NCBI GenBank assembly: GCA_965215505.1 | Contig: OZ244065.1 | Span: 4,736,001 to 4,800,000 of the forward strand | From: Capsulimonadaceae bacterium | Lineage (GTDB): Bacteria; Armatimonadota; Armatimonadia; Armatimonadales; Capsulimonadaceae | Direction: 5' to 3' | DNA length: 64,000 nucleotides | Shown here: positions 37,230 through 45,237 of the stretch, in pieces | Position numbering within the stretch: position 1 is the stretch's first letter | How the letters are laid out: the number at the start of each line of letters is the position of its first letter | Position numbers and translations under genes: made by a program | Notes under the pieces: generated by a model | Database searches by the model: none | The model's input: only the letters and a program-made list of their open reading frames with translations | Told to the model about the DNA's origin: nothing

Positions 37230-37859
37230 CTACGGCAGGCCCTCCCGCCGGACGTGTGCCTCGCGGTAGTCGTTCAAGCGCCCCACGAACTCATCCGACG
37301 TCACCGCCATCAGCCCGTCGTAGATGATCAGCCGCCCCCGCACCCACTCCAGGCGCAGGGCGGCGGCCTTCAGCCAGGGCAGGCGCGGCAGGAACCCCGT
37401 GACGTCCCGGAGCATGAGGAACACCGGGCGCGGCACCGCGCCGCACCGGATCAGGCCGGGCGTGTCCCACGGGTAGGCGCGGGCGAGGTCCGGCCAGGGG
37501 ATGAGGCCGACCTGGTAGAAGGAGGCGTTGTCCACGAGGCCGTCGCGCCGGAATACCACGGCGGGCAGGTCGTCCCGCAGGCAGCGGCCCAGCGACAGCG
37601 CCCACCGCACGATGCACAGGACGCACGGGCAGTAGAAGACCAGGACCACGGCGAGTATGCCCCGCACCACCAGCCCGGACTGACCGTGCAGCACCAGCCC
37701 CTTGTGCAGAGTGCCGGACAGGACGCCGTTGCCGAGGACGTCCAGGATTGCCAGCCCGCCCGCCGACAGGATGACCGCGTGGAGGAACATCAGTCGCAGG
37801 TTTCCCCGGTCAAAAGGGATCGCTACCTCGTCCCCGCTCCTCATGTCCTCGTTTGTCAC
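37230..37859 (-). CDS. hypothetical membrane protein (STM3941-like)
   Basis: AGGAGG RBS before GTG; two TM segments, then PAVVFRRDGLVDNAS...GLIPW. Confidence 0.6.
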   Translation of the reverse strand: MTNEDMRSGDEVAIPFDRGNLRLMFLHAVILSAGGLAILDVLGNGVLSGTLHKGLVLHGQSGLVVRGILAVVLVFYCPCVLCIVRWALSLGRCLRDDLPAVVFRRDGLVDNASFYQVGLIPWPDLARAYPWDTPGLIRCGAVPRPVFLMLRDVTGFLPRLPWLKAAALRLEWVRGRLIIYDGLMAVTSDEFVGRLNDYREAHVRREGLP

Positions 37860-38132: not shown

Positions 38133-38651
38133 TCAGGCCGGCTTCGCGCCAGGCTTGACGACGCGGGCCTTCCCGTCCGTCGTGATCGTCTGCGACAACT
38201 GCGTCTCCCGCCAAACAAGCCACGTCGGCCCGCTTTTCACCCAGACGCTCCGCCAAAGCCCGTCGAAAATCAGGGCGTGCGTCTTGTGGGTGCGGCGGCC
38301 GATGATATGTAAAACCGTATGCTCACGCGACAGAACGACCGCGCCCTTCGATGTGGCCTGGACCGTGAGGATCGTCGGCTCGCTTTCCATGGACTGGGAG
38401 TAGGAGAGCGACCTCCCGAGGTTTTGCTGTGCCTGCCGCTTGTCGTAGACGCCTCCCGAGATGTCGCGGCCCTGGAAGTCGTCCGCGTAGCCTGCCATGT
38501 ACCCCTTGACGTCCCTGTGGACCATCCTCTGCTCGCCCCGATGAACAGCGGCCTGGATCTGTTCTCTGACGCTGCCGACGCCGCCTGAAGCGGCGTGAGA
38601 CGATAACCCCCAAACGGTCAGCGCCACCATCGTCTTGACCACCTTGTGCAT
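38133..38651 (-). CDS. secreted NTF2-like (DUF4440) protein
   Basis: Signal peptide; DVKGYMAGYADDF, SVWVKSGPTW; GAGGGG RBS. Confidence 0.65.
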   Translation of the reverse strand: MHKVVKTMVALTVWGLSSHAASGGVGSVREQIQAAVHRGEQRMVHRDVKGYMAGYADDFQGRDISGGVYDKRQAQQNLGRSLSYSQSMESEPTILTVQATSKGAVVLSREHTVLHIIGRRTHKTHALIFDGLWRSVWVKSGPTWLVWRETQLSQTITTDGKARVVKPGAKPA

Positions 38652-38849
38652 CAATCCCCCTCACGATGACAGCCGCCCATCTTCACATTGCGCGCCCGCG
38701 TGAACCAAAGGAAGCGGTTTCCGTTCGCCTGCATGGGCCGGGGGCTTGCCCCGGCACGGAGCGATGAAGACGAGCCACCGGGTCCCCACTGGAAACTCGG
38801 AAGGCTTTAGAACGCCGGACTCCAGGCAAACCCGATGCCTCGCCCTGCG

Positions 38850-38946
38850 GCCTCACAGCGAACCACCCGGCAACACCGTCTGTACAGCCGCGCGGACCCG
38901 CAGGAACAACGGCAGCAGTGGCGTCCGGCGCAGCGCGATGTTAGGC
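38850..38946 (-). repeat. attC site A (degenerate, R' GTGAGGC)
   Basis: + strand GCCTCAC...GTGGCGTCCGGCGCAGCGCGATGTTAGGC. Confidence 0.7.
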
Positions 38947-38961
38947 CGACACCCGGAAGGC

Positions 38962-39195
38962 TTACTCCTCAACGCCCACGTCAAACGCCTGCGCCCGAAG
39001 CTCCTCCGAGAGTCGGTGGGCCGATGCAAGCGGGACACCCTCCCGGATCACCGTTCTGCCCGCATCCGTGCAGTCCGCCGCCATGTCCACGGCCTCCCGG
39101 ATTGAGCAGGAGAGGTGTTCCCGCAGGGCCTTGACGAGAAGGAGCAGGGGCCGTTCACTGCCGGGCATCCATCCCCGGAGTATGATCTTAGCCAT
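38962..39195 (-). CDS. cassette ORF resembling the ribosomal protein L7/L12 C-terminal domain
   Basis: LVKALREHLSCSIREAVDM...VIREGV...A.RL.EEL...VGVE. Confidence 0.6.
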   Translation of the reverse strand: MAKIILRGWMPGSERPLLLLVKALREHLSCSIREAVDMAADCTDAGRTVIREGVPLASAHRLSEELRAQAFDVGVEE

Positions 39196-39234
39196 CGTCA
39201 ACACTCCCGGAACACTCCCGGATCATGAGCAGCG

Positions 39235-39332
39235 GCCTGACGGCCGCGCCCTCCGGCGACACCGGCCCGCACAGCCAACCGATCCCACAGAGCAAAAGGA
39301 CAGGTGGCGTCCGGTGCAGCGCCGTGTTAGGC
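39235..39332 (-). repeat. attC site B (R' GTCAGGC)
   Basis: + strand GCCTGAC...CCGGCGACACC...GGTGGCGTCCGGTGCAGCGCCGTGTTAGGC. Confidence 0.8.
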
Positions 39333-39560
39333 TGCTGGCTTGTCAGGCTTACGCCGCTGAAGGATTTTTCGGAGTGCCGTATGATACCCGCAAAAAGTCA
39401 CGGCCCATAAACCGAAATCCAGCCCTAGCTCACCGACATTCAACGGGCCGGAAAGGATATTGTAATGAAAGCCCGCTAACCGTTCTAGTAGCCGTGTAGT
39501 CACATAGGTCGCTACCAAAACAGCCCAGAACTTGCCATCTTGCCAAAACTTGCCGTTCAT
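39327..39560 (-). CDS. cassette ORF: small membrane protein
   Basis: GGAG RBS; TAA stop inside the attC R'' (GCCTAAC). Confidence 0.7.
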   Translation of the reverse strand: MNGKFWQDGKFWAVLVATYVTTRLLERLAGFHYNILSGPLNVGELGLDFGLWAVTFCGYHTALRKILQRRKPDKPAA

Positions 39561-39600
39561 AGTGATTTGTCTCCGTGCAAGAATAGCCTTTCACCCAGCG

Positions 39601-39698
39601 GTCTAACGGCTGCGCTCACCGGCGACGCCTGATTGCACAGCCGCTCGACCCCGCAGAACACAAGGACAGGTGGCGTCCGGTGCAGCGCTGTGTTAGGC
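39601..39698 (-). repeat. attC site C
   Basis: + strand GTCTAAC...GCTCACC...GGTGCAGC...GTTAGGC. Confidence 0.9.
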
Positions 39699-39968
39699 CG
39701 CAGACTGGTCACCGTCATCGTGTATCACAGCCATTGGACAGGCAATCAGGGCTTCGTGACACTGACGCTCTTCCTCTTCTGTTTCTGGTTGCTTGTAAAT
39801 GAAATAGCTCCAGGAAACCCCGCCCTCTTCATTGTAACGAAACCCGCCCTCTTCATTGTAACGAAAGTTGTTTGGTGCAAGGTCGGCACAAATGCCATGG
39901 GCCAAGCAGCCTTCACAATCAATCCAATATTTGCCTGCTACGCTTTGCGGGTGCTTTTCGCCTTGCAT
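39693..39968 (-). CDS. cassette ORF: single-cluster ferredoxin (CxxHxxC...CP)
   Basis: GCLAHGICADLAPNNF...YKQPETEEE...ACPMAVIHDDG; stop inside R''. Confidence 0.85.
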   Translation of the reverse strand: MQGEKHPQSVAGKYWIDCEGCLAHGICADLAPNNFRYNEEGGFRYNEEGGVSWSYFIYKQPETEEEERQCHEALIACPMAVIHDDGDQSAA

Positions 39969-40003
39969 TCTGTTTTCGCCTCAAGAGAGCCGTTCGCTCT
40001 GCG

Positions 40004-40102
40004 GCCTAACGGGGGCGCTCACCGGCGACACCGCCGCACTCGATTTGCGATACTAGCCACGACACCGGCAGCGGTGGCGTCCGGTGCAGCGCAGTGTTAG
40101 GC
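40004..40102 (-). repeat. attC site D
   Basis: Minus strand GCCTAAC-5nt-GCTGCACC...GGTGAGC-6nt-GTTAGGC. Confidence 0.92.
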
Positions 40103-40124
40103 CGCTGGTTGTTTCGCTACCATG

Positions 40125-40532
40125 TCAAGAGCATTCCGAGATTGTGGACCCTACACGTCTGGAAGAATATTCGTGTCCCCAGTAGTCAGTGACATCATAC
40201 CAATTGGGATCAGATATATCTGTCTCTGCCTCCATCGGGAAATCCCAACTCGCTTTAAGTTGAAGATGTTGAATGTATGCTGGTGACCAAACTATCTCTC
40301 CTATCACATTCTTTTCGTCGAAGCATACCACCCCGGTTGCCTTCGCCAATACAAGTTGACAGGAAAAACCATCCAAGCTACCTTCCGCGATACAGCAACC
40401 ACACCAACCCGCCAATTGTTTGACCTCGGCAGCCGCCTCCAAAAATATCTGCCGCAAATTGGGATCGGCTATTTGCCCCTGGTTCTTTTCCAGTGATTGC
40501 CCATCTTTTGTTAAGTATGCTTCCCAGCCCAT
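40125..40532 (-). CDS. cassette ORF: hypothetical protein
   Basis: 135-aa AT-rich ORF filling the D-E interval. Confidence 0.7.
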   Translation of the reverse strand: MGWEAYLTKDGQSLEKNQGQIADPNLRQIFLEAAAEVKQLAGWCGCCIAEGSLDGFSCQLVLAKATGVVCFDEKNVIGEIVWSPAYIQHLQLKASWDFPMEAETDISDPNWYDVTDYWGHEYSSRRVGSTISECS

Positions 40533-40574
40533 ATTTATTCCTGTGACCGCCTCAAAAGAGCCTTCAGCCCAGCG

Positions 40575-40673
40575 GCCTAACGGGGGCGCTCACCGGCGAC
40601 ACCTGAATTGCACAGCCAACCGACCCCGCAGAGCCAAAGGACAGGTGGCGTCAGGTGCAGTGCAATGTTAGGC
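40575..40673 (-). repeat. attC site E
   Basis: + strand GCCTAAC...GCTCACC...GGTGCAGT...GTTAGGC. Confidence 0.9.
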
Positions 40674-40973
40674 CGATTGCCCTGTAGATTTAGGGGTCGG
40701 TTCGCCACTCGATCTTGGCGTGATCCCCTGTAAGACCTGAGCGACAATAAAAAAAGTTACTGCAATGCCAACACGCAAATAAAGAGGGAACGAGTGTGGC
40801 ATACAGTTCATAACGGCGAATATACCGGCGAAGCACGCACCGGCGAGAGACGACAGGATGACAGAGCGCTGGCTACCATCAATGCTGCCGAGCCGCCTTT
40901 GAATCCAGATGCGGAAGAGAAGCATTGGTATACAGACCGCAAGCCAAATCGCCAATTTTTGGGACCATTCCAT
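40668..40973 (-). CDS. cassette ORF: small three-TM membrane protein
   Basis: MEWSQKLAIW...; stop inside R''. Confidence 0.7.
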   Translation of the reverse strand: MEWSQKLAIWLAVCIPMLLFRIWIQRRLGSIDGSQRSVILSSLAGACFAGIFAVMNCMPHSFPLYLRVGIAVTFFIVAQVLQGITPRSSGEPTPKSTGQSA

Positions 40974-41049
40974 AATCAACCCCTGCTCAATCCATACTGC
41001 TGTTGATTTCGAGCGGTACGTGGACTTGCCTTTGCCATCGCCGCAAACG

Positions 41050-41149
41050 GCCCAACGGCTGCGCTCACCGGCGGCACCTGAACTGCACAGCCAACCGAAC
41101 TTGCAAAGCAATCCCGACAGGTGGCGTCCGGTGCAGCGCGGTGTTGGGC
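41050..41149 (-). repeat. attC site F
   Basis: + strand GCCCAAC...GCTCACC...GGTGCAGC...GTTGGGC. Confidence 0.92.
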
Positions 41150-41233
41150 CGTCTGGAAGCGCTACTCCCGATAACGGACCTTATGCAATCTTTAGAACCG
41201 ATGGCGATACGGCATCGGCTACAATGGACTGTG

Positions 41234-41587
41234 CTAGTGGTGATCCACGTCGGCAGCGGCATGATTTCGACCGATGCCCTGCATCGTCCTAGAAGGCTGA
41301 GTGAGAAGCATGCCGACGCCGACAGCCACGAGCATAGCTCCCAGAAGGAGACACCAAGCCCAGTAGGAGAAGGTTTGCCAACGCACCAGTTTCGGGCTGT
41401 CCACCAATGCCCCTTCCCCCGTCTTCTCCAAACCAAAGACCTTCATTTGCCACCGTAAGATCGCCTCTTGGAACCGGAGATTAAGCCGGACAATCACGGG
41501 AGTTAAAAGCAGCACGGCGATTCCTATAACTATTAAGGCAACGCACTCCCATGGAGGCGCAGAGGCTTCAGACACAGAATGAGACAT
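41234..41587 (-). CDS. cassette ORF: two-TM membrane protein
   Basis: MSHSVSE...; two hydrophobic helices. Confidence 0.6.
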   Translation of the reverse strand: MSHSVSEASAPPWECVALIVIGIAVLLLTPVIVRLNLRFQEAILRWQMKVFGLEKTGEGALVDSPKLVRWQTFSYWAWCLLLGAMLVAVGVGMLLTQPSRTMQGIGRNHAAADVDHH

Positions 41588-41706
41588 AATCACTTTTTCT
41601 AGCAATAAATCAGGCCACAGCCACCCGAAACGGAGAGGCAGGGTTCCCGCTTCCCATCTGTTTCCTATAAGTTGCGTTCTGCAACAGTGAAGCATCCCGC
41701 CCAGCG

Positions 41707-41804
41707 GCCCAACGGCCAAGCTCACCGGCGGCACCACCTGCATAGCCAACCGACCCAGAACGGGACAAGGCAGCGGTGGCGTCCGGTGCAGCGCCTTGTT
41801 AGGT
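41707..41804 (-). repeat. attC site G
   Basis: + strand GCCCAAC...GCTCACC...GGTGCAGC...GTTAGGT. Confidence 0.92.
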
Positions 41805-42383
41805 GGCAGGCTTAACTAGCCTTGCGCCACGGCGGCTTCGGTTCACACTCCATATGAGGAGAAGACAAATCAAGGCGCCCAAAGCTACAACATTAAGACC
41901 CGTAACTGCTACCGCTGGTAAGGCGACCACAACAGCTCCCGCATCTGAAACCAACGTCGAAGGCGTATTCCAAGACGCCCGTAACGAAGCCAACAAGCCC
42001 CAGCTGAAACCCAGATTGTTCCCATCTTCGCCAGTATAATAGCCCACCACCAACTTCGGCCCACAGACAAACGAGTAAATGACGCCCGCTGTACTGATCT
42101 GGAACAGTTGCAATGCTTGAACGATGAGCGAGAGAATGATGCCCGCGTTCTTATTCGCCACGAGCAGAACGCCAGCCACGAGCGCCAGCAGAAAGAGACT
42201 GAAAGCTGCGGCAGTGACGAGGAAACTCGATCCGCTGGCGTCGGTAACAGCAAAATAGATGCCTGCCGCACCTCCCATAACTTGAATGGAGGCAATCAGC
42301 ATTCGCCAGAACTTCAGCCAGAATAAGTAAACAGCGGGATTGTCTTGCTCGATAGTGTCTTGCTCTGGTGTTGCGAAAGCCAT
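41799..42383 (-). CDS. cassette ORF: multi-TM membrane protein
   Basis: MAFATPEQ...; several hydrophobic helices; stop inside R'' (ACCTAAC). Confidence 0.7.
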   Translation of the reverse strand: MAFATPEQDTIEQDNPAVYLFWLKFWRMLIASIQVMGGAAGIYFAVTDASGSSFLVTAAAFSLFLLALVAGVLLVANKNAGIILSLIVQALQLFQISTAGVIYSFVCGPKLVVGYYTGEDGNNLGFSWGLLASLRASWNTPSTLVSDAGAVVVALPAVAVTGLNVVALGALICLLLIWSVNRSRRGARLVKPAT

Positions 42384-42423
42384 TTCTTCTTGCCTTATGT
42401 CCCAGGAGACGCCTGCTCCTGCC

Positions 42424-42520
42424 ACCTAACGGCTAAGCTCAGCCGCGACACCGCAAGCAGAGCCGAACGAACTTGCACAGCATACGGCAGCGGTGGCGTC
42501 GGCTGCAGCGGGTGTTAGGC
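42424..42520 (-). repeat. attC site H
   Basis: + strand ACCTAAC...GCTCAGC...GCTGCAGC...GTTAGGC (L-box changes are compensatory). Confidence 0.9.
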
Positions 42521-42534
42521 CGCTGTTAGTAACG

Positions 42535-42657
42535 TGTCCGTGACGGGGGTTGAACCCGCGACCTCCGGGCCGCCGCTGACGGAGCCACCGCCAGCGACTC
42601 CGCGCCGTGGCGAGCGACGCTTATCCGGCGCTCTCAACCGGTCTGAGCTACACGGAC
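42535..42657 (-). ncRNA. tRNA-like RNA with a 54-nt structured insert replacing the anticodon loop, carried in an ORF-less cassette
   Basis: Acceptor GTCCGTG/CACGGAC; TA; D arm GCTC-AGACCGGTTGA-GAGC; stem CCGG/CCGG; variable AGGTC; T arm GCGGG-TTCAACC-CCCGT; discriminator A; no encoded CCA. Confidence 0.75.
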
Positions 42658-42667
42658 ATGGAAGCCG

Positions 42668-42767
42668 CTGACGGCAAGGCTTTGTCAGCGGCCTGACGGC
42701 AAGGCTTTGTCAGCGGCCTGACGGCAAGGCTTTGTCAGCGGCCTGACGGCAAGGCTTTGTCAGCGGC
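42668..42767. repeat. perfect 25-bp tandem repeat x4 (CTGACGGCAAGGCTTTGTCAGCGGC)
   Basis: Four exact copies abutting attC I. Confidence 0.95.
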
Positions 42768-42863
42768 CTAACGGGGGTGCTCACCGGCGACACCTGACTG
42801 CACAGCCAACCGACCTCGCAGAGACAAGGGACAGGTGGCGTCCGGTGCAGCGCCTTGTTGGGC
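42766..42863 (-). repeat. attC site I
   Basis: + strand GCCTAAC...GCTCACC...GGTGCAGC...GTTGGGC. Confidence 0.92.
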
Positions 42864-42909
42864 CGTCTGGCTGTTAAGGTATTGTCCCAAGTCTCACGCG
42901 ATGCAACCG

Positions 42910-43266
42910 CTAATGCCTACCAACCAGTATCAATAATTTCTTCAAGCCAAGTCCTAACACGGCTATCGGCAGAATTGTAACCATCAGAACCATTACATCC
43001 CGTAAGCCCCGCGAGAAGGCAGGTAGCTTATGCAAAAACAATAGACAAAGAATACCCGGCAGCACAAAAACCATAGGAAATACGATGAGGTCAGCGACAT
43101 AAGGGATACCCGTTAGTCTTACCAAATGCTTGAGCGGAAAAAGACACCAAATTGTCAGGAAAAGTGACGGAAGAATCATGGCATAACCAAGAGTATACTG
43201 ACGTATATTTTGTTGGGTTGCTGGCAAATTGTGTTTTTTAAGTTGTGACTCTGCGGTAGGGTTCAT
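42910..43266 (-). CDS. cassette ORF: three-TM membrane protein
   Basis: 118-aa AT-rich hydrophobic ORF. Confidence 0.7.
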   Translation of the reverse strand: MNPTAESQLKKHNLPATQQNIRQYTLGYAMILPSLFLTIWCLFPLKHLVRLTGIPYVADLIVFPMVFVLPGILCLLFLHKLPAFSRGLRDVMVLMVTILPIAVLGLGLKKLLILVGRH

Positions 43267-43306
43267 GTCAATTATTCCGATATCGTTTCAAGTTAGCGGT
43301 GACACC

Positions 43307-43534
43307 CTATCTTTGGCCCCCAAGCAAATAGTAGGCGGCATAAGCGACGGGCAATGTCCCCAACAAAATCAATCCAACAGTTGTAAATCGCTTTTGAACT
43401 TCTTTGGCGCGGGTTATTGAATCGCCTGATTGTCCTGCTTTGAGTGTGATAAGAAATACTCGCACGATGAGTACCACGCCAAGTAACATCCACAAGCCAA
43501 AGGGAATAAAAAATGCCTGTTGATGCTGATTCAT
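43307..43534 (-). CDS. cassette ORF: two-TM small membrane protein
   Basis: AAGGAG RBS; MNQHQQAFFIPFGLW... Confidence 0.7.
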   Translation of the reverse strand: MNQHQQAFFIPFGLWMLLGVVLIVRVFLITLKAGQSGDSITRAKEVQKRFTTVGLILLGTLPVAYAAYYLLGGQR

Positions 43535-43575
43535 CTTGTTCTCTCCTTTCGTCCCTGCACTGCCTTCGTCCAGCG

Positions 43576-43674
43576 GCCCAACGGTGGCGCTCACCGGCGG
43601 CACCTGAACTGCAAAGCCAAATGAACTCGCAGAGCCAAGGGACAGGTGGCGTCCGGTGCAGCGCAATGTTAGAC
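43576..43674 (-). repeat. attC site J (array-proximal)
   Basis: + strand GCCCAAC...GCTCACC...GGTGCAGC...GTTAGAC. Confidence 0.92.
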
Positions 43675-43795
43675 CGCTGACCCTCGTTACCAAGTGAATA
43701 AGATTGCGAGACCGTTTTGGGCACATGTTTCTAGGAACAAGCGTGTCTCCCATCGTTGGTATTCATCTAAATCCCGATCGCGACAAGGCCACACC

Positions 43796-44722
43796 ATGTC
43801 CGCCGCCACTCTGCCCGGTCCTCACGCTGCCGCCACATCCCACACCGCCGCCACCGGCCCCCGCACGCCCGCCGGCAAGGCCGTCGCCGCCCGCAATGCC
43901 ACCACCCACGGCCTCTTCGCCCGCGACATCGTCCTGCCCGCCCTCGGCGAAGACCCCGAAGGCTACCGGCAGGTCGCCGACGAACTCGCCGCACAGCTCC
44001 AGCCCGAAAACCTCCTCGAACAGCACTACGTCGAGAAGATCGCCGCCGCCTCCTGGCGTCTGCGCCGCCTCCACCGCTGGCAGGCCCAGCTCTTCGAGGA
44101 CCGCGCGCTCACCGAGGACGAGCGCCTGGACAAGCTCGACAAGGTCCTCCGCCATGAGAGCCGCCTGCATCGGCAAATAGACACAGCGGTAAGGATGCTC
44201 AACCGGGAAGTCCCCGACCTCCACCAGAGCCGCGCCCGACGCCGGGCACTCCTCAACACCCAGAAGTTCGAGGCCGAGTGCCGCGCCGACCTGGAGGCCG
44301 ACCTGGAAGTGACTGTCGAGGCCCGCCGCCTCTTGCAGCCCCTCACCGCCGCGCCCGCCCTCGACACCGCCCTGCTGGACACCGCCCCGACCGCCCAGGA
44401 CGAGGAAGACCGCATCAGCGAAGAAAAACGACAAAACGAACCCCCGCCCTGGCTGGCGGCGCGTCAGGAGGCCGCCGGGCGCGAGCGGGCGCGTCTCCTG
44501 GCGACCCTGGATCACGACATCTCCGAAATCCTCCCCGACGGCCGCCCCGTCTATGTGGACGAAAACACCTGGGCGACCATGCAGCGCCGGCACGAAATGG
44601 GTCGCCCCGAAGAAGCCGCCCGGTACGCCGCCTCCGACCGCGAAGACTTCCTCAAAGACCAGGCCGCCGCCCGCGCCCTCCGCGCCGCCGAAGCCGCCCT
44701 CCCCATGGAGGCCCCCGCGTAG
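43796..44722 (+). CDS. hypothetical protein (TGPRTxxGK...RNA..HGL motif family)
   Basis: TGPRTPAGKAVAARNATTHGL, WRLRR; host-like codon usage; no tyrosine-recombinase motifs seen. Confidence 0.7.
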   Translation: MSAATLPGPHAAATSHTAATGPRTPAGKAVAARNATTHGLFARDIVLPALGEDPEGYRQVADELAAQLQPENLLEQHYVEKIAAASWRLRRLHRWQAQLFEDRALTEDERLDKLDKVLRHESRLHRQIDTAVRMLNREVPDLHQSRARRRALLNTQKFEAECRADLEADLEVTVEARRLLQPLTAAPALDTALLDTAPTAQDEEDRISEEKRQNEPPPWLAARQEAAGRERARLLATLDHDISEILPDGRPVYVDENTWATMQRRHEMGRPEEAARYAASDREDFLKDQAAARALRAAEAALPMEAPA

Positions 44723-44797
44723 GGGCGGGGTCCCCCGCCCTCATCCTATTCTGACTAACTGACGTTAGGCATGGTCCGCTATAGTGCCCACGCCAGT

Positions 44798-45034
44798 CAG
44801 GACGAGTGATCAAAATCACTCGCTCCATTCGGATTTGTCCCAGGGACAAGGGAGCAGGCTTCCAGAGACTGATCGCTGAGTGCGGGGTCTTTGGAGTGCG
44901 GGGTCTTTGGAGGGCGGGGTCTTTGGAGTGCGGGGTCTTTGGAGGGCGGGGTCTTTGGAGTGCGGGGTCTTTGGCCGGTCTTCTGTCCCCTGGACAGGTC
45001 CGGCGGCAGCGAGTGATTTCAATCACTCGTCCTG
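44798..45034. mobile_element. MITE-like element with 27-bp terminal inverted repeats and an internal 16-bp x6 VNTR
   Basis: CAGGACGAGTGATCAAAATCACTCGCT matches the reverse complement of 45008-45034 at 25/27; GAG[T/G]GCGGGGTCTTTG x6 at 44878-44973. Confidence 0.55.
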
Positions 45035-45237
45035 TCTCGTCCTGCCTCCCCTCCCGCCCTCATCCTAATCTGACTAATCTGACCCCCCTCTCCCGCTTGC
45101 AGGGGCAGGGGCGGGGGGTGGGGGTCCCAAAGCCCTGCGAATCGTCGAACTGTGGTAACATGACCGTGCCCGCCGCACACTGCCCGCCGCGCACTGCCCG
45201 CCGCGCACTGCCCGCCGCCGTCAACCGAGGAGAACAA

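Follow-up and report, generated by a model that had tools for sequence, protein, structure and literature searches.

A ten-site cassette array without an integrase, very probably derived from a chromosomal integron of an Armatimonadota lineage

Positions 38850–43674 (minus strand) of the window, i.e. of the whole 64,000-nucleotide stretch analysed here, very probably represent a CALIN, i.e. the cassettes of a chromosomal integron, specific to its lineage, from which the integrase has disappeared. The array consists of ten attC sites of 97–100 bp, which delimit nine cassettes. Its first site abuts a gene of no known family (p342) at the place where four relatives have intI; as far as can be judged from gene order, the most likely history is therefore an in situ loss of intI together with attI. 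The first-pass annotation had claimed a host that does not look proteobacterial, and this agrees with the closest relatives found for the flanking gene, which place the host in Armatimonadota, probably in the Capsulimonadaceae.

The attC sites and the cassettes

All ten sites claimed on the minus strand were located (Table 1), and their spans, counted from the start of R'' through the end of R', show the two array ends to be exact; the start-to-start spacing is 342–811 bp. The inverted core sites of attC are, on the top strand, RYYYAAC at the 5' end (R'') and GTTRRRY at the 3' end (R'); here the terminal AAC of R'' is present in 10 of 10 sites and the initial GTT of R' in 8 of 10, site 9 having GTC and site 10 GTG. 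The proposed anatomy, GCCTAAC-5 nt-GCTGCACC-GGACG...CGCC-GGTGAGC-6 nt-GTTAGGC, occurs letter for letter in site 7 and with slight deviations in the others. L'' (GCTGCACC, 8 nt) is one base longer than L' (GGTGAGC, 7 nt), and the expected unpaired T of the bottom strand bulges in 7 of the 10 predicted folds, as had been proposed. The site lengths fall within the range of attC, an imperfect palindrome of ~55–140 bp that keeps its structure around a variable centre; in the alignment the central columns are variable and the stems conserved. The mean column identity of 81% supports the claimed homogeneity of the sites. They are of a lineage-wide attC type, which in congeners builds very large chromosomal arrays beside bona fide IntI genes.

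The bottom (plus) strands of the ten sites were folded as DNA. The minimum-energy structure is the full hairpin of R and L boxes in six of them (sites 1, 2, 3, 5, 7 and 8), and in seven it contains an L stem with two single-base bulges (T and C) in the arm complementary to R''/L''. Sites 6, 9 and 10 have minimum-energy structures that differ from the canonical fold; the fold z-scores range from -0.99 to -5.94, several being modest. The consensus fold of the ten sites comprises 33 pairs, and compensatory changes are seen in 8. For the 30 IntI-linked attC sites of other genomes from which model R2 (below) was built, 93.2% of cells were paired (25–46% in slid controls), 10 of the 26 pairs had changed on both sides, and the observed covariation score was reached by none of 500 shuffles.

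Two covariance models were used, both lineage-specific: R1, built from the ten window sites, and R2, built solely from 30 attC sites beside integron integrases of other genomes. R2 matched all ten window sites at 47.5–98.9 bits, with sites 9 and 10 lowest. R1 combined with nhmmer identified 17 attC sites in the 6.18-Mb genome, every one within four clusters (the window array and three further clusters of 2, 2 and 3 sites), and R2 recovered the same 17. The repeats are not chance occurrences; Rfam contained no matching family (0 hits). In all four clusters the template of the leading strand carries the attC bottom strands, as PMC5371416 reports for 25 of 30 sedentary integrons.

The cassettes had been described as AT-richer; seven interiors have 45–54% G+C and the other two 65–66%, against 66.5% for the genome. 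Four open reading frames, ending at 41799, 40668, 39693 and 39327, do stop at the TAA of R'' as claimed, and cassette 2 lacks an ORF. A search of 5.8 billion proteins with the cassette 6 product found, apart from itself, only two relatives, at identities of 81% and 75%. Neither a toxin-antitoxin cassette nor resistance cassettes were recognised in the array, which has no cargo of obvious applied or medical importance.

Table 1. Features of the cassette array and its flank (positions in the window; scores for models R1 and R2)
Feature	Position	Strand	Description
p342 gene	43796..44722	+	308 aa, all-helical, no known family; in four relatives the homologue immediately follows intI
junction DNA	43675..43785		111 bp between attC1 and p342 gene; relatives have first cassette, attI and intI there
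attC1	43576..43674	-	99 bp; R'' GTCTAAC, R' GTTGGGC; first site, abuts junction to p342 gene; R1 118.5 bits, R2 96.5 bits
cassette 1 ORF a	43307..43534	-	75 aa from ATG, hydrophobic; no family match
cassette 1 ORF b	42910..43266	-	118 aa, hydrophobic
attC2	42766..42863	-	98 bp; closes cassette 1; R2 94.8 bits
cassette 2 tandem repeat	42668..42767		25-nt unit, four copies (repeat family D5)
cassette 2 tRNA-like RNA	42535..42657	-	two hairpins replace anticodon loop
attC3	42424..42520	-	97 bp; closes cassette 2; R2 93.2 bits
cassette 3 ORF	41799..42383	-	194 aa, membrane-like; stop within R''
attC4	41707..41804	-	98 bp; closes cassette 3; R2 98.3 bits
cassette 4 ORF	41234..41587	-	117 aa, membrane-like
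attC5	41050..41149	-	100 bp; closes cassette 4; fold z -5.73; R2 98.9 bits
cassette 5 ORF	40668..40973	-	101 aa, membrane-like; stop within R''
attC6	40575..40673	-	99 bp; closes cassette 5; R2 87.6 bits
cassette 6 ORF	40125..40532	-	135 aa
attC7	40004..40102	-	99 bp; closes cassette 6; fold z -5.94; R2 88.1 bits
cassette 7 ORF	39693..39968	-	91 aa; single-cluster 4Fe-4S ferredoxin (PF13370, E 2e-13); stop within R''
attC8	39601..39698	-	98 bp; closes cassette 7; R2 92.2 bits
cassette 8 ORF	39327..39560	-	77 aa; stop within R''
attC9	39235..39332	-	98 bp; R' GTCAGGC, GTT triplet lost; closes cassette 8; non-canonical fold; R2 79.9 bits
cassette 9 ORF	38962..39195	-	77 aa, G+C-rich
attC10	38850..38946	-	97 bp; R' GTGAGGC; most decayed; distal array end; R2 47.5 bits, weakest

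The integrase in the host genome and in its relatives

The host assembly is a single contig of 6.18 Mb with a marker completeness of 96%. Searches of this whole genome revealed no integron integrase (best TIGR02249 score 71.5 bits, cut-off 265), and all four attC clusters are without one. The genome encodes five ordinary tyrosine recombinases (PF00589, matched spans of 159–176 residues), which show no sign of the added stretch specific to integron integrases and are at least 90 kb from every attC cluster, the nearest lying ~90 kb from the array; a tblastn search with the IntI of a congener returned the PF00589 genes and chance-level matches, with nothing further. The claim of an array without an integrase is thus upheld for the assembled genome, although this assembly, being one contig, could have missed an intI carried on a plasmid. 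The array has what defines a CALIN (at least two clustered attC sites, gaps below ~4 kb, no intI nearby) and lacks what defines a complete integron, i.e. an intI with the additional domain and an attI adjoining the array.

The situation is different in the relatives. The TIGR02249 cut-off is exceeded in 9 of 61 genomes, with 462.8 bits in the congener G020, whose IntI of 320 aa aligns end to end with IntI4 of V. cholerae (2a3v, E 5e-94), the extra domain between patches II and III included. A full IntI is present in 6 of the 23 other genomes of the genus, and the attC type of the window in 20 of these 23, in 26 of 36 genomes of the family and in 3 of 24 from the sister family. Fourteen of the 23 congeners, many of them draft assemblies, have this attC type and no full IntI, and loss of the integrase in the genus looks repeated. 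The congener G006 carries arrays of ~240 and ~249 attC sites, and ~490 such sites amount to roughly 7% of one 4-Mb genome of the lineage. The proposal of a resident integron system stands for the lineage, where arrays linked to IntI occur in congeners, but not for the genome studied here, which retains integrase-less remnants only. Its array resembles a sedentary chromosomal integron in its location on the chromosome and in the homogeneity of its attC sites, whose type is specific to the lineage, and, with exactly ten sites, stays under the large-array threshold of >10 attC (as given for IntegronFinder 2.0 in PMC9024848) or >19 (as given in the 2016 paper, PMC4889954).

The p342 locus and the origin of the array

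Between attC1 and the start codon of p342 there are 121 bp. In four relatives intI sits between the array and the p342 homologue, and the layout in G020 is that of the window plus intI: a group of four attC sites, there on the opposite strand, is followed by an attI-like site, IntI and then the p342 homologue (74.6% identity over 118 aa). The order intI–p342 was found at 4 of the 10 IntI loci fetched (G020, G005, G014 and G035); attC sites alone precede p342 at six loci (L058, L062, L076, L088, L101 and L107), and a partial intI at two (L075 and L109). There is no synteny beyond p342 between the window and G020. The junction 43675–43785 has no match in the 40 relatives searched, and neither a deletion scar nor an intI pseudogene is visible; the loss event itself is therefore deduced from gene order.

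Judging from how integrons work, the nine cassettes would have been inserted singly by IntI at an attI beside intI. The folded bottom strand (the plus strand of the window), with its R and L boxes paired and two bases bulging, would serve as the IntI substrate, to be cut between A and C of AAC, which corresponds to G/TT on the top strand. Subsequently the intI–attI module would have been removed, probably with part of the first cassette, and the cassettes would have been deprived of the promoter normally located in the intI/attI region. Since no IntI is encoded in the genome, the host presumably can no longer excise or reshuffle the cassettes. The array may now be a frozen reservoir, in which GTT has already gone from the two sites most distant from where intI once lay; the remaining eight look usable, should an IntI arrive from outside.

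Other genomes may preserve traces of cassette movement. The whole of cassette 1 recurs at 97–98% identity in two other species (G022 and G010), where it comes after an attI-like site, upstream of which lies an intI remnant of 33 residues. The shared stretch begins precisely at the G of GTTGGGCC, i.e. at the G/TT crossover point, and stops just past the next R'. Such boundaries are likely to be a natural footprint of recombination. In a contig from another population, cassettes 8 and 6 are bridged by DNA other than cassette 7, which indicates recent turnover of the array; very recent loss of intI, or IntI acting in trans, fits this better than a long-dead array.

An improbable alternative is that intI never resided at this locus: the array could stem from secondary-site insertion, or be a rearranged part of a larger array that came to lie beside p342, the integrase having been lost separately elsewhere. 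Both routes to CALIN are among those that Cury et al. (PMC4889954) list. Several copies of p342 exist (three in the host genome, 73 loci in the species collection), and in a quick, partly unresolved tree the intI-adjacent members of the family do not form one clade (4 changes are required, and 78 of 500 shuffles give a value as low), so that adjacency to p342 is weaker evidence of orthology than it first appears. The junction DNA has no recognisable origin, and of the three small clusters elsewhere one (C1:1358847) begins at an attI-like sequence, which points to more than one platform or insertion place. Loss in place is nevertheless favoured, since order, strands and the side of p342 are identical to those in the four IntI-bearing relatives and match the attC-only and partial-intI loci listed above, and it is unlikely that ten sites so oriented came to adjoin one of the three p342 copies by chance.

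Even less probable is an array that is still active, through an unrecognised recombinase (one of the five tyrosine recombinases or another enzyme) or through an IntI on an unassembled replicon. The intact R boxes of eight sites, the differences in array content between closely related populations and the single-contig assembly with its 96% marker completeness would agree with it, but the stretch specific to IntI is absent from all five PF00589 proteins, which are also far from every cluster, relatives with the same attC type use a canonical IntI, and the two distal sites are decaying. That the repeats belong to another palindromic family (REP or MITE-like) separating small genes is effectively refuted: they are imperfect, intergenic palindromes of ~100 bp, but they possess R''/R' core sites, the extra L'' base and two bulged bases, occur 17 out of 17 in four co-oriented clusters, are matched by R2, adjoin IntI genes in relatives and bound a cassette common to several species exactly at G/TT.

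Comparison with known integrons

To our knowledge, integron research has dealt almost wholly with Proteobacteria. Gammaproteobacteria account for 93% of the complete integrons in complete genomes, according to the figures quoted from IntegronFinder 2.0 (PMC9024848). The Armatimonadota family studied here has a homogeneous attC type of its own together with canonical IntI genes, and offers recombination assays an IntI/attC pair from outside the Proteobacteria.

The closest parallels are the sedentary integrons of Vibrio (the V. cholerae superintegron with its VCR sites), which are likewise chromosomal with homogeneous, lineage-specific attC, have short promoter-less cassettes, mostly ORFans, and bottom strands on the leading-strand template; moreover, the congener IntI aligns over its full length with VchIntIA. 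The window genome differs in having neither intI nor attI, and in several Capsulimonadaceae relatives a conserved gene of unassigned family follows intI. No toxin-antitoxin cassette was recognised in the window, which is a further difference. The attC sites of the window are ~98 bp long with T and C bulging from the bottom strand, whereas the bulged bases of VCR are T and G. The two arrays of G006 (see above) are at least as large as any Vibrio array quoted in PMC5371416 (up to 203 cassettes). Mobile (class 1–5) integrons share the logic of the recombination sites; unlike them, the window array is carried by neither a transposon nor a plasmid, its attC sites are homogeneous (theirs are heterogeneous), and it is without resistance cassettes and without IntI.

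Among CALIN, for which loss of intI, the probable origin here, is one of the routes proposed by Cury et al. 2016 (PMC4889954), the window array is comparatively large, with ten sites where the survey gives fewer than 6 for 83%. Its origin, unlike that of 95% of the CALIN in the survey, can be argued from intI-keeping relatives with the same gene order; most of the surveyed CALIN were without a recognisable intI remnant in the vicinity. The window is one well-resolved case of CALIN formation, in which the intI-loss route becomes testable by comparison within the genus. We found no printed description of CALIN in Armatimonadota.

More tentatively, array, intI and p342 could form a three-part module in Capsulimonadaceae, with p342 as a lineage-specific accessory factor, cassette stockpiling at or above the Vibrio scale and a cargo that includes a tRNA-like non-coding cassette; we regard this as a rather doubtful possibility.

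In this reading p342 has been retained in the window after the presumed loss of intI; in L065, L075 and L109 the gene follows a full or decayed intI although its own copies have diverged strongly.

Integron kinship and the slot beside p342

The array, ten attC sites and nine cassettes on the minus strand, is by definition a CALIN, i.e. a cluster of attC sites lacking an integron integrase (IntI), and by kinship it belongs, in decayed form, to a family of sedentary chromosomal integrons; a complete integron was rejected, as neither intI nor attI is present at the array. The closest relatives of p342, the gene adjoining the attC1 side, come from Armatimonadota, Armatimonadales or Capsulimonadaceae bacteria, and 60 genomes of relatives (61 with the host) were searched. 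The NCBIfam model for the integrase, TIGR02249, scored above its cut-off in 9 of the 61, six of these nine being among the host's 23 congeneric genomes (G002, G005, which has one internal TAA, G006, G009, G014 and G020). G020 encodes an IntI of 320 aa whose alignment with V. cholerae IntI4 (2a3v, E 5e-94) runs over the full length and takes in the integron-specific stretch. Sites matching R1, a covariance model built from the ten window sites, occur in 20/23 other genomes of the genus, in 26/36 genomes of the family and, weakly, in 3/24 genomes of the sister family. Fourteen genomes of the genus carry attC sites without a full IntI; many of these are drafts, and six have at most five contigs.

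The largest arrays were found in G006 with an nhmmer profile of foreign sites: 240 attC sites at C1:3277324-3406085, starting about 1 kb from a full intI, and 249 at C1:3737494-3885793, all 489 on one strand and none on the other. Together they occupy about 277 kb, or about 7% of a genome of about 4.0 Mb, and in site number they equal or exceed the 203 cassettes that PMC5371416 quotes for Vibrio. The arrays of relatives have 51–54% G+C vs 57–62% in their flanks. Full-text searches found no paper describing integrons of Armatimonadota, PMC13554262 included; supplements of large surveys may list such elements. The more unusual material lies around the array: the very large arrays of one congener, an intI-associated gene whose family is unknown, and a tRNA-like RNA as a cassette.

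The gene order of G020 suggests what may once have stood beside p342. There, four attC sites on one strand give way to a first cassette and an attI-like point (…TACTT|GTTAGACC); next comes intI, on the opposite strand, and about 120 bp beyond it a gene of 284 aa that is 74.6% identical to p342 (window 43796-44722) over 118 aa. The order intI-then-p342 recurs in G005, G014 and G035 (the last from another genus), i.e. in 4 of 10 IntI loci, each taken with flanks of 1.5 kb. Conversely, among 73 loci of the species collection that encode p342 relatives, five carry intI, full or partial, immediately upstream in the same orientation and nine are preceded by R1-type attC sites on the other strand, so that one or the other is found at eleven. 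The three with a full intI are probably the same genomes as G005, G014 and G035, since their p342 sequences are identical.

Position 43674 is the end of attC1 and 43796 the start of p342; the 111 bp at 43675-43785 match nothing in 40 relatives. Contigs from three sequencing runs of other studies (X4, X5 and X8) fit the window from 43786 rightwards with 0–1 differences and are unlike it to the left, in the X8 contig (2005 nt, the longest of the three) for 1905 nt, so that a lineage-specific breakpoint lies at 43785/43786. The junction 43675-43870, compared by BLAST with 40 relatives, gave nothing upstream of 43845, where similarity to the paralogues begins, and an exact-pattern scan of metagenome contigs with a 43-nt junction stretch gave no match. 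We infer from these comparisons that intI, attI and part of a first cassette were lost in place, with the caveat that p342 belongs to a multi-copy family, represented three times in this genome. A quick tree (63 rows, those shorter than the query's 40–110 core left out) does not join the intI-adjacent p342 copies in one clade (27 of 57 inner branches are open), and the window shares no synteny with G020 beyond p342. An origin of the array at a secondary site or by rearrangement has the multiple, scattered p342 copies on its side and the recurrent intI-then-p342 order facing it, and we regard it as improbable.

Integrase absence and the nature of the attC sites

The host genome, assembled in one contig of 6,177,771 bases, has a marker completeness of 96%; the window corresponds to C1:4736001-4800000. 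The claim of the first-pass annotation that the array lacks an integrase held genome-wide by three approaches. The best TIGR02249 match reached 71.5 bits vs the cut-off of 265, the sub-threshold matches consisting of two pieces that skip model positions 181–244. PF00589 identified five tyrosine recombinases (at 0.63, 2.15, 2.20, 4.68 and 5.21 Mb) whose domains span 159–176 residues, with no sign of an added integron-specific stretch. Finally, tblastn with the IntI of a congener retrieved four of the tyrosine recombinases and chance-level matches, none near any attC cluster. That the array is still active, served by an unrecognised enzyme or from an unassembled replicon, is highly improbable next to these searches, even if completeness falls short of 100%.

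According to the preferred reading, loss in place, the attC sites would be substrates of an IntI that this genome no longer encodes. Lacking intI, attI and Pc, the array would be expected neither to move nor, for the most part, to be expressed. Its eight structurally intact sites could serve an incoming IntI, a use of CALIN sites speculated on by Cury et al. (PMC4889954).

R1 and an nhmmer profile found 17 attC sites in the 6.18-Mb genome, all within four clusters (see the table below). The three small ones all lack an integrase and are low in G+C. The cluster at C1:1358847 starts with an attI-like motif, similar to one in G022 and G010, within a 500-bp gap after an aconitase gene; at C1:1607739 a third, half-decayed site is possible at 1609578-1609644. 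[quoted passage not shown] The same orientation is given for 25/30 sedentary chromosomal integrons in PMC5371416; with four clusters the agreement is suggestive only.

Coordinates of attC clusters and tRNA-like RNA copies in the host genome
Feature	Location	Strand	Remark
attC cluster, 2 sites	C1:1358847-1359387	+	L028-L030 group
attC cluster, 2 sites	C1:1607739-1608489	+	L028-L030 group
attC cluster, 3 sites	C1:4523589-4524787	-	L028-L030 group
attC cluster, 10 sites	window array	-	
tRNA-like RNA, 123 nt	window 42535-42657	-	inside cassette 2
tRNA-like RNA, second copy	C1:1210608-1210732		

The canonical attC anatomy proposed from the sequence was borne out, and the array ends, 38850 and 43674, proved exact. 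Read on the minus strand from 43674 to 38850, the ten repeats (97–100 bp) share one plan. The R'' core, GCCTAAC or a sequence close to it (AAC in 10/10), comes first, and L'' (GCTGCACC) follows after 5 nt. The two halves of a short, conserved stem then enclose the variable centre, and beyond them L' (GGTGAGC) is separated by 6 nt from R' (GTTRGGC in 8/10). The deviating R' sequences, GTCAGGC in site 9 and GTGAGGC in site 10, are both at the low-coordinate end. The sites are homogeneous, as had been stated, with a mean column identity of 81% over the ten. The bottom (+) strands were folded as DNA, the failure to form R/L-box hairpins having been named beforehand as a refutation. In 6/10 sites the fold of lowest energy is the complete hairpin of R and L boxes, and 7/10 have an L stem with two single-base bulges (T and C) in its 3' arm; sites 6, 9 and 10 have other minimum-energy folds, and the z-scores lie between -0.99 and -5.94. 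Of the 33 pairs in the consensus fold, 8 show compensatory changes.

To escape circularity, a second covariance model, R2, was built from 30 attC sites of other genomes only, taken from arrays beside full IntI genes (G006, G020 and locus L081) or beside a partial one (G008). It matches 10/10 window sites at 47.5–98.9 bits (lowest for site 10, next lowest for site 9) and genome-wide it finds the same 17 sites as R1. In the foreign sites 93.2% of cells are paired, a figure somewhat favoured by the fitting of their alignment to the R1 structure; both-side changes occur in 10/26 pairs, the covariation score was reached by none of 500 shuffles, and pairing falls to 25–46% in a slid-partner control. 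That the repeats are something other than attC sites is a reading of negligible probability. A candidate eleventh site (37582-37607, a 26-nt similarity of family D6) was rejected: no attC architecture follows it, it lies inside a G+C-rich ORF, and neither R1 nor R2 matches it. The Rfam gathering scan of the whole window gave no hits.

Cassettes and footprints of their movement

The nine complete cassettes measure, in order from attC1, 810, 342, 717, 657, 475, 571, 403, 366 and 385 bp. The annotation had described their ORFs as AT-richer, four of them ending inside R''; both descriptions stand, with 45–54% G+C in seven interiors and 65–66% in two (array 55.4%, genome 66.5%), and with four ORFs that end at a TAA within R''. 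Pfam and PADLOC were applied to all 11 proteins, those of the ten cassette ORFs and p342, and NCBIfam to five of them. A single protein passed a cut-off, that of cassette 7, which is a single-cluster 4Fe-4S ferredoxin (PF13370, E 2e-13). For the remaining ORFs (75, 118, 194, 117, 101, 135, 77 and 77 aa) there is no above-cut-off Pfam match and no PADLOC match, and the three of these eight checked against NCBIfam have none there. Five of the eight have the look of small membrane proteins, and a search of 5.8 billion proteins gave just two relatives for the one of 135 aa. The ferredoxin ORF contains a 24-nt direct duplication (39816-39863, 96% identical) that repeats eight residues (…RYNEEGGF RYNEEGG…).

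A BLAST comparison of the array with 40 relatives found cassette 1 (window 43582 to 42761) in G022 at 97% and in G010 at 98% identity, the latter copy cut by a contig end. The identity starts exactly at the G of GTTGGGCC and in G022 stops a few bases past the R' of attC2, to be followed by a different cassette. Upstream of cassette 1 both genomes have not an attC but an attI-like sequence (…TATAGTAACAA|GTT) and, about 360–460 bp further upstream on the other strand, a 33-residue remnant of an IntI N-terminus. The two contigs (G022:C566 and G010:C57, loci L139 and L140), which come from species representatives, are 99.9% identical over 1442 nt upstream of cassette 1; with both elements in it, this stretch is another decayed platform in the genus.

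A 1315-nt contig of X8 joins cassettes 8 and 6, with 552 nt of other DNA in place of cassette 7, and the flanks of X4, X5 and X8 are more than 99% identical to the window over 38600-39327; the cassette content has therefore differed in the recent course of closely similar populations. Many apparent short joints from one attC site to another, with sides below 40 nt inside repeats, were left out, and no conclusion is drawn from the holes in cover of X4 (40772-40952 and 41315-41495) or of X5 and X8 (most of 40772-42762 and 42944-43486).

The tRNA-like RNA of cassette 2 and the p342 family

Cassette 2, which lacks an ORF, carries a 25-nt repeat in four copies and, next to it, a tRNA-like RNA, which scores 44.4 bits (E 2.9e-8) against the Rfam tRNA model and has 56 nt in the anticodon loop region, where the model expects 9. 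Its structure comprises acceptor, D and T arms and a 4-bp stem opening to two hairpins. Five copies occur in 3/39 family genomes (two in this genome, two in G033, one in G062), with both-side changes at 9/36 pairs among four of them. It duplicates none of the 63 tRNAs in the genome, and ARAGORN at default settings finds no tRNA in the window. In intron mode ARAGORN proposed a tRNA-Arg(GCG) with a 49-nt intron; this was rejected, as the mode also gave dozens of implausible calls genome-wide and the flanking parts resemble none of the 63 ordinary tRNAs beyond generic arms. The tandem repeat (42668-42767, exact copies) lies directly upstream of the RNA, and each unit is able to form a small hairpin.

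The p342 family has no Pfam, NCBIfam or PADLOC match. The AlphaFold model of p342 consists entirely of helices, with fairly good local confidence and an overall topology that is tentative, and its comparison with the PDB gave nothing at E <= 0.001 (best 0.94). There are 380 relatives at E<=1e-5, mostly from Armatimonadota and some from Bryobacteraceae. The host paralogues of the window copy (+ strand) are at C1:1121387-1121851 and C1:1913686-1914150. The repeated unit of the family is the gene with about 250 bp upstream, copies within a genome are often near-identical, and several directly follow full or decayed intI genes. Short repeats lie downstream of p342 (44734-45218), namely a 16-nt unit in about eight copies (44862-44989), a 14-nt unit in three (45167-45218) and one of 25 nt found at both 44734 and 45053; segments of 50–65 nt from this region recur near the paralogue at 1.91 Mb.
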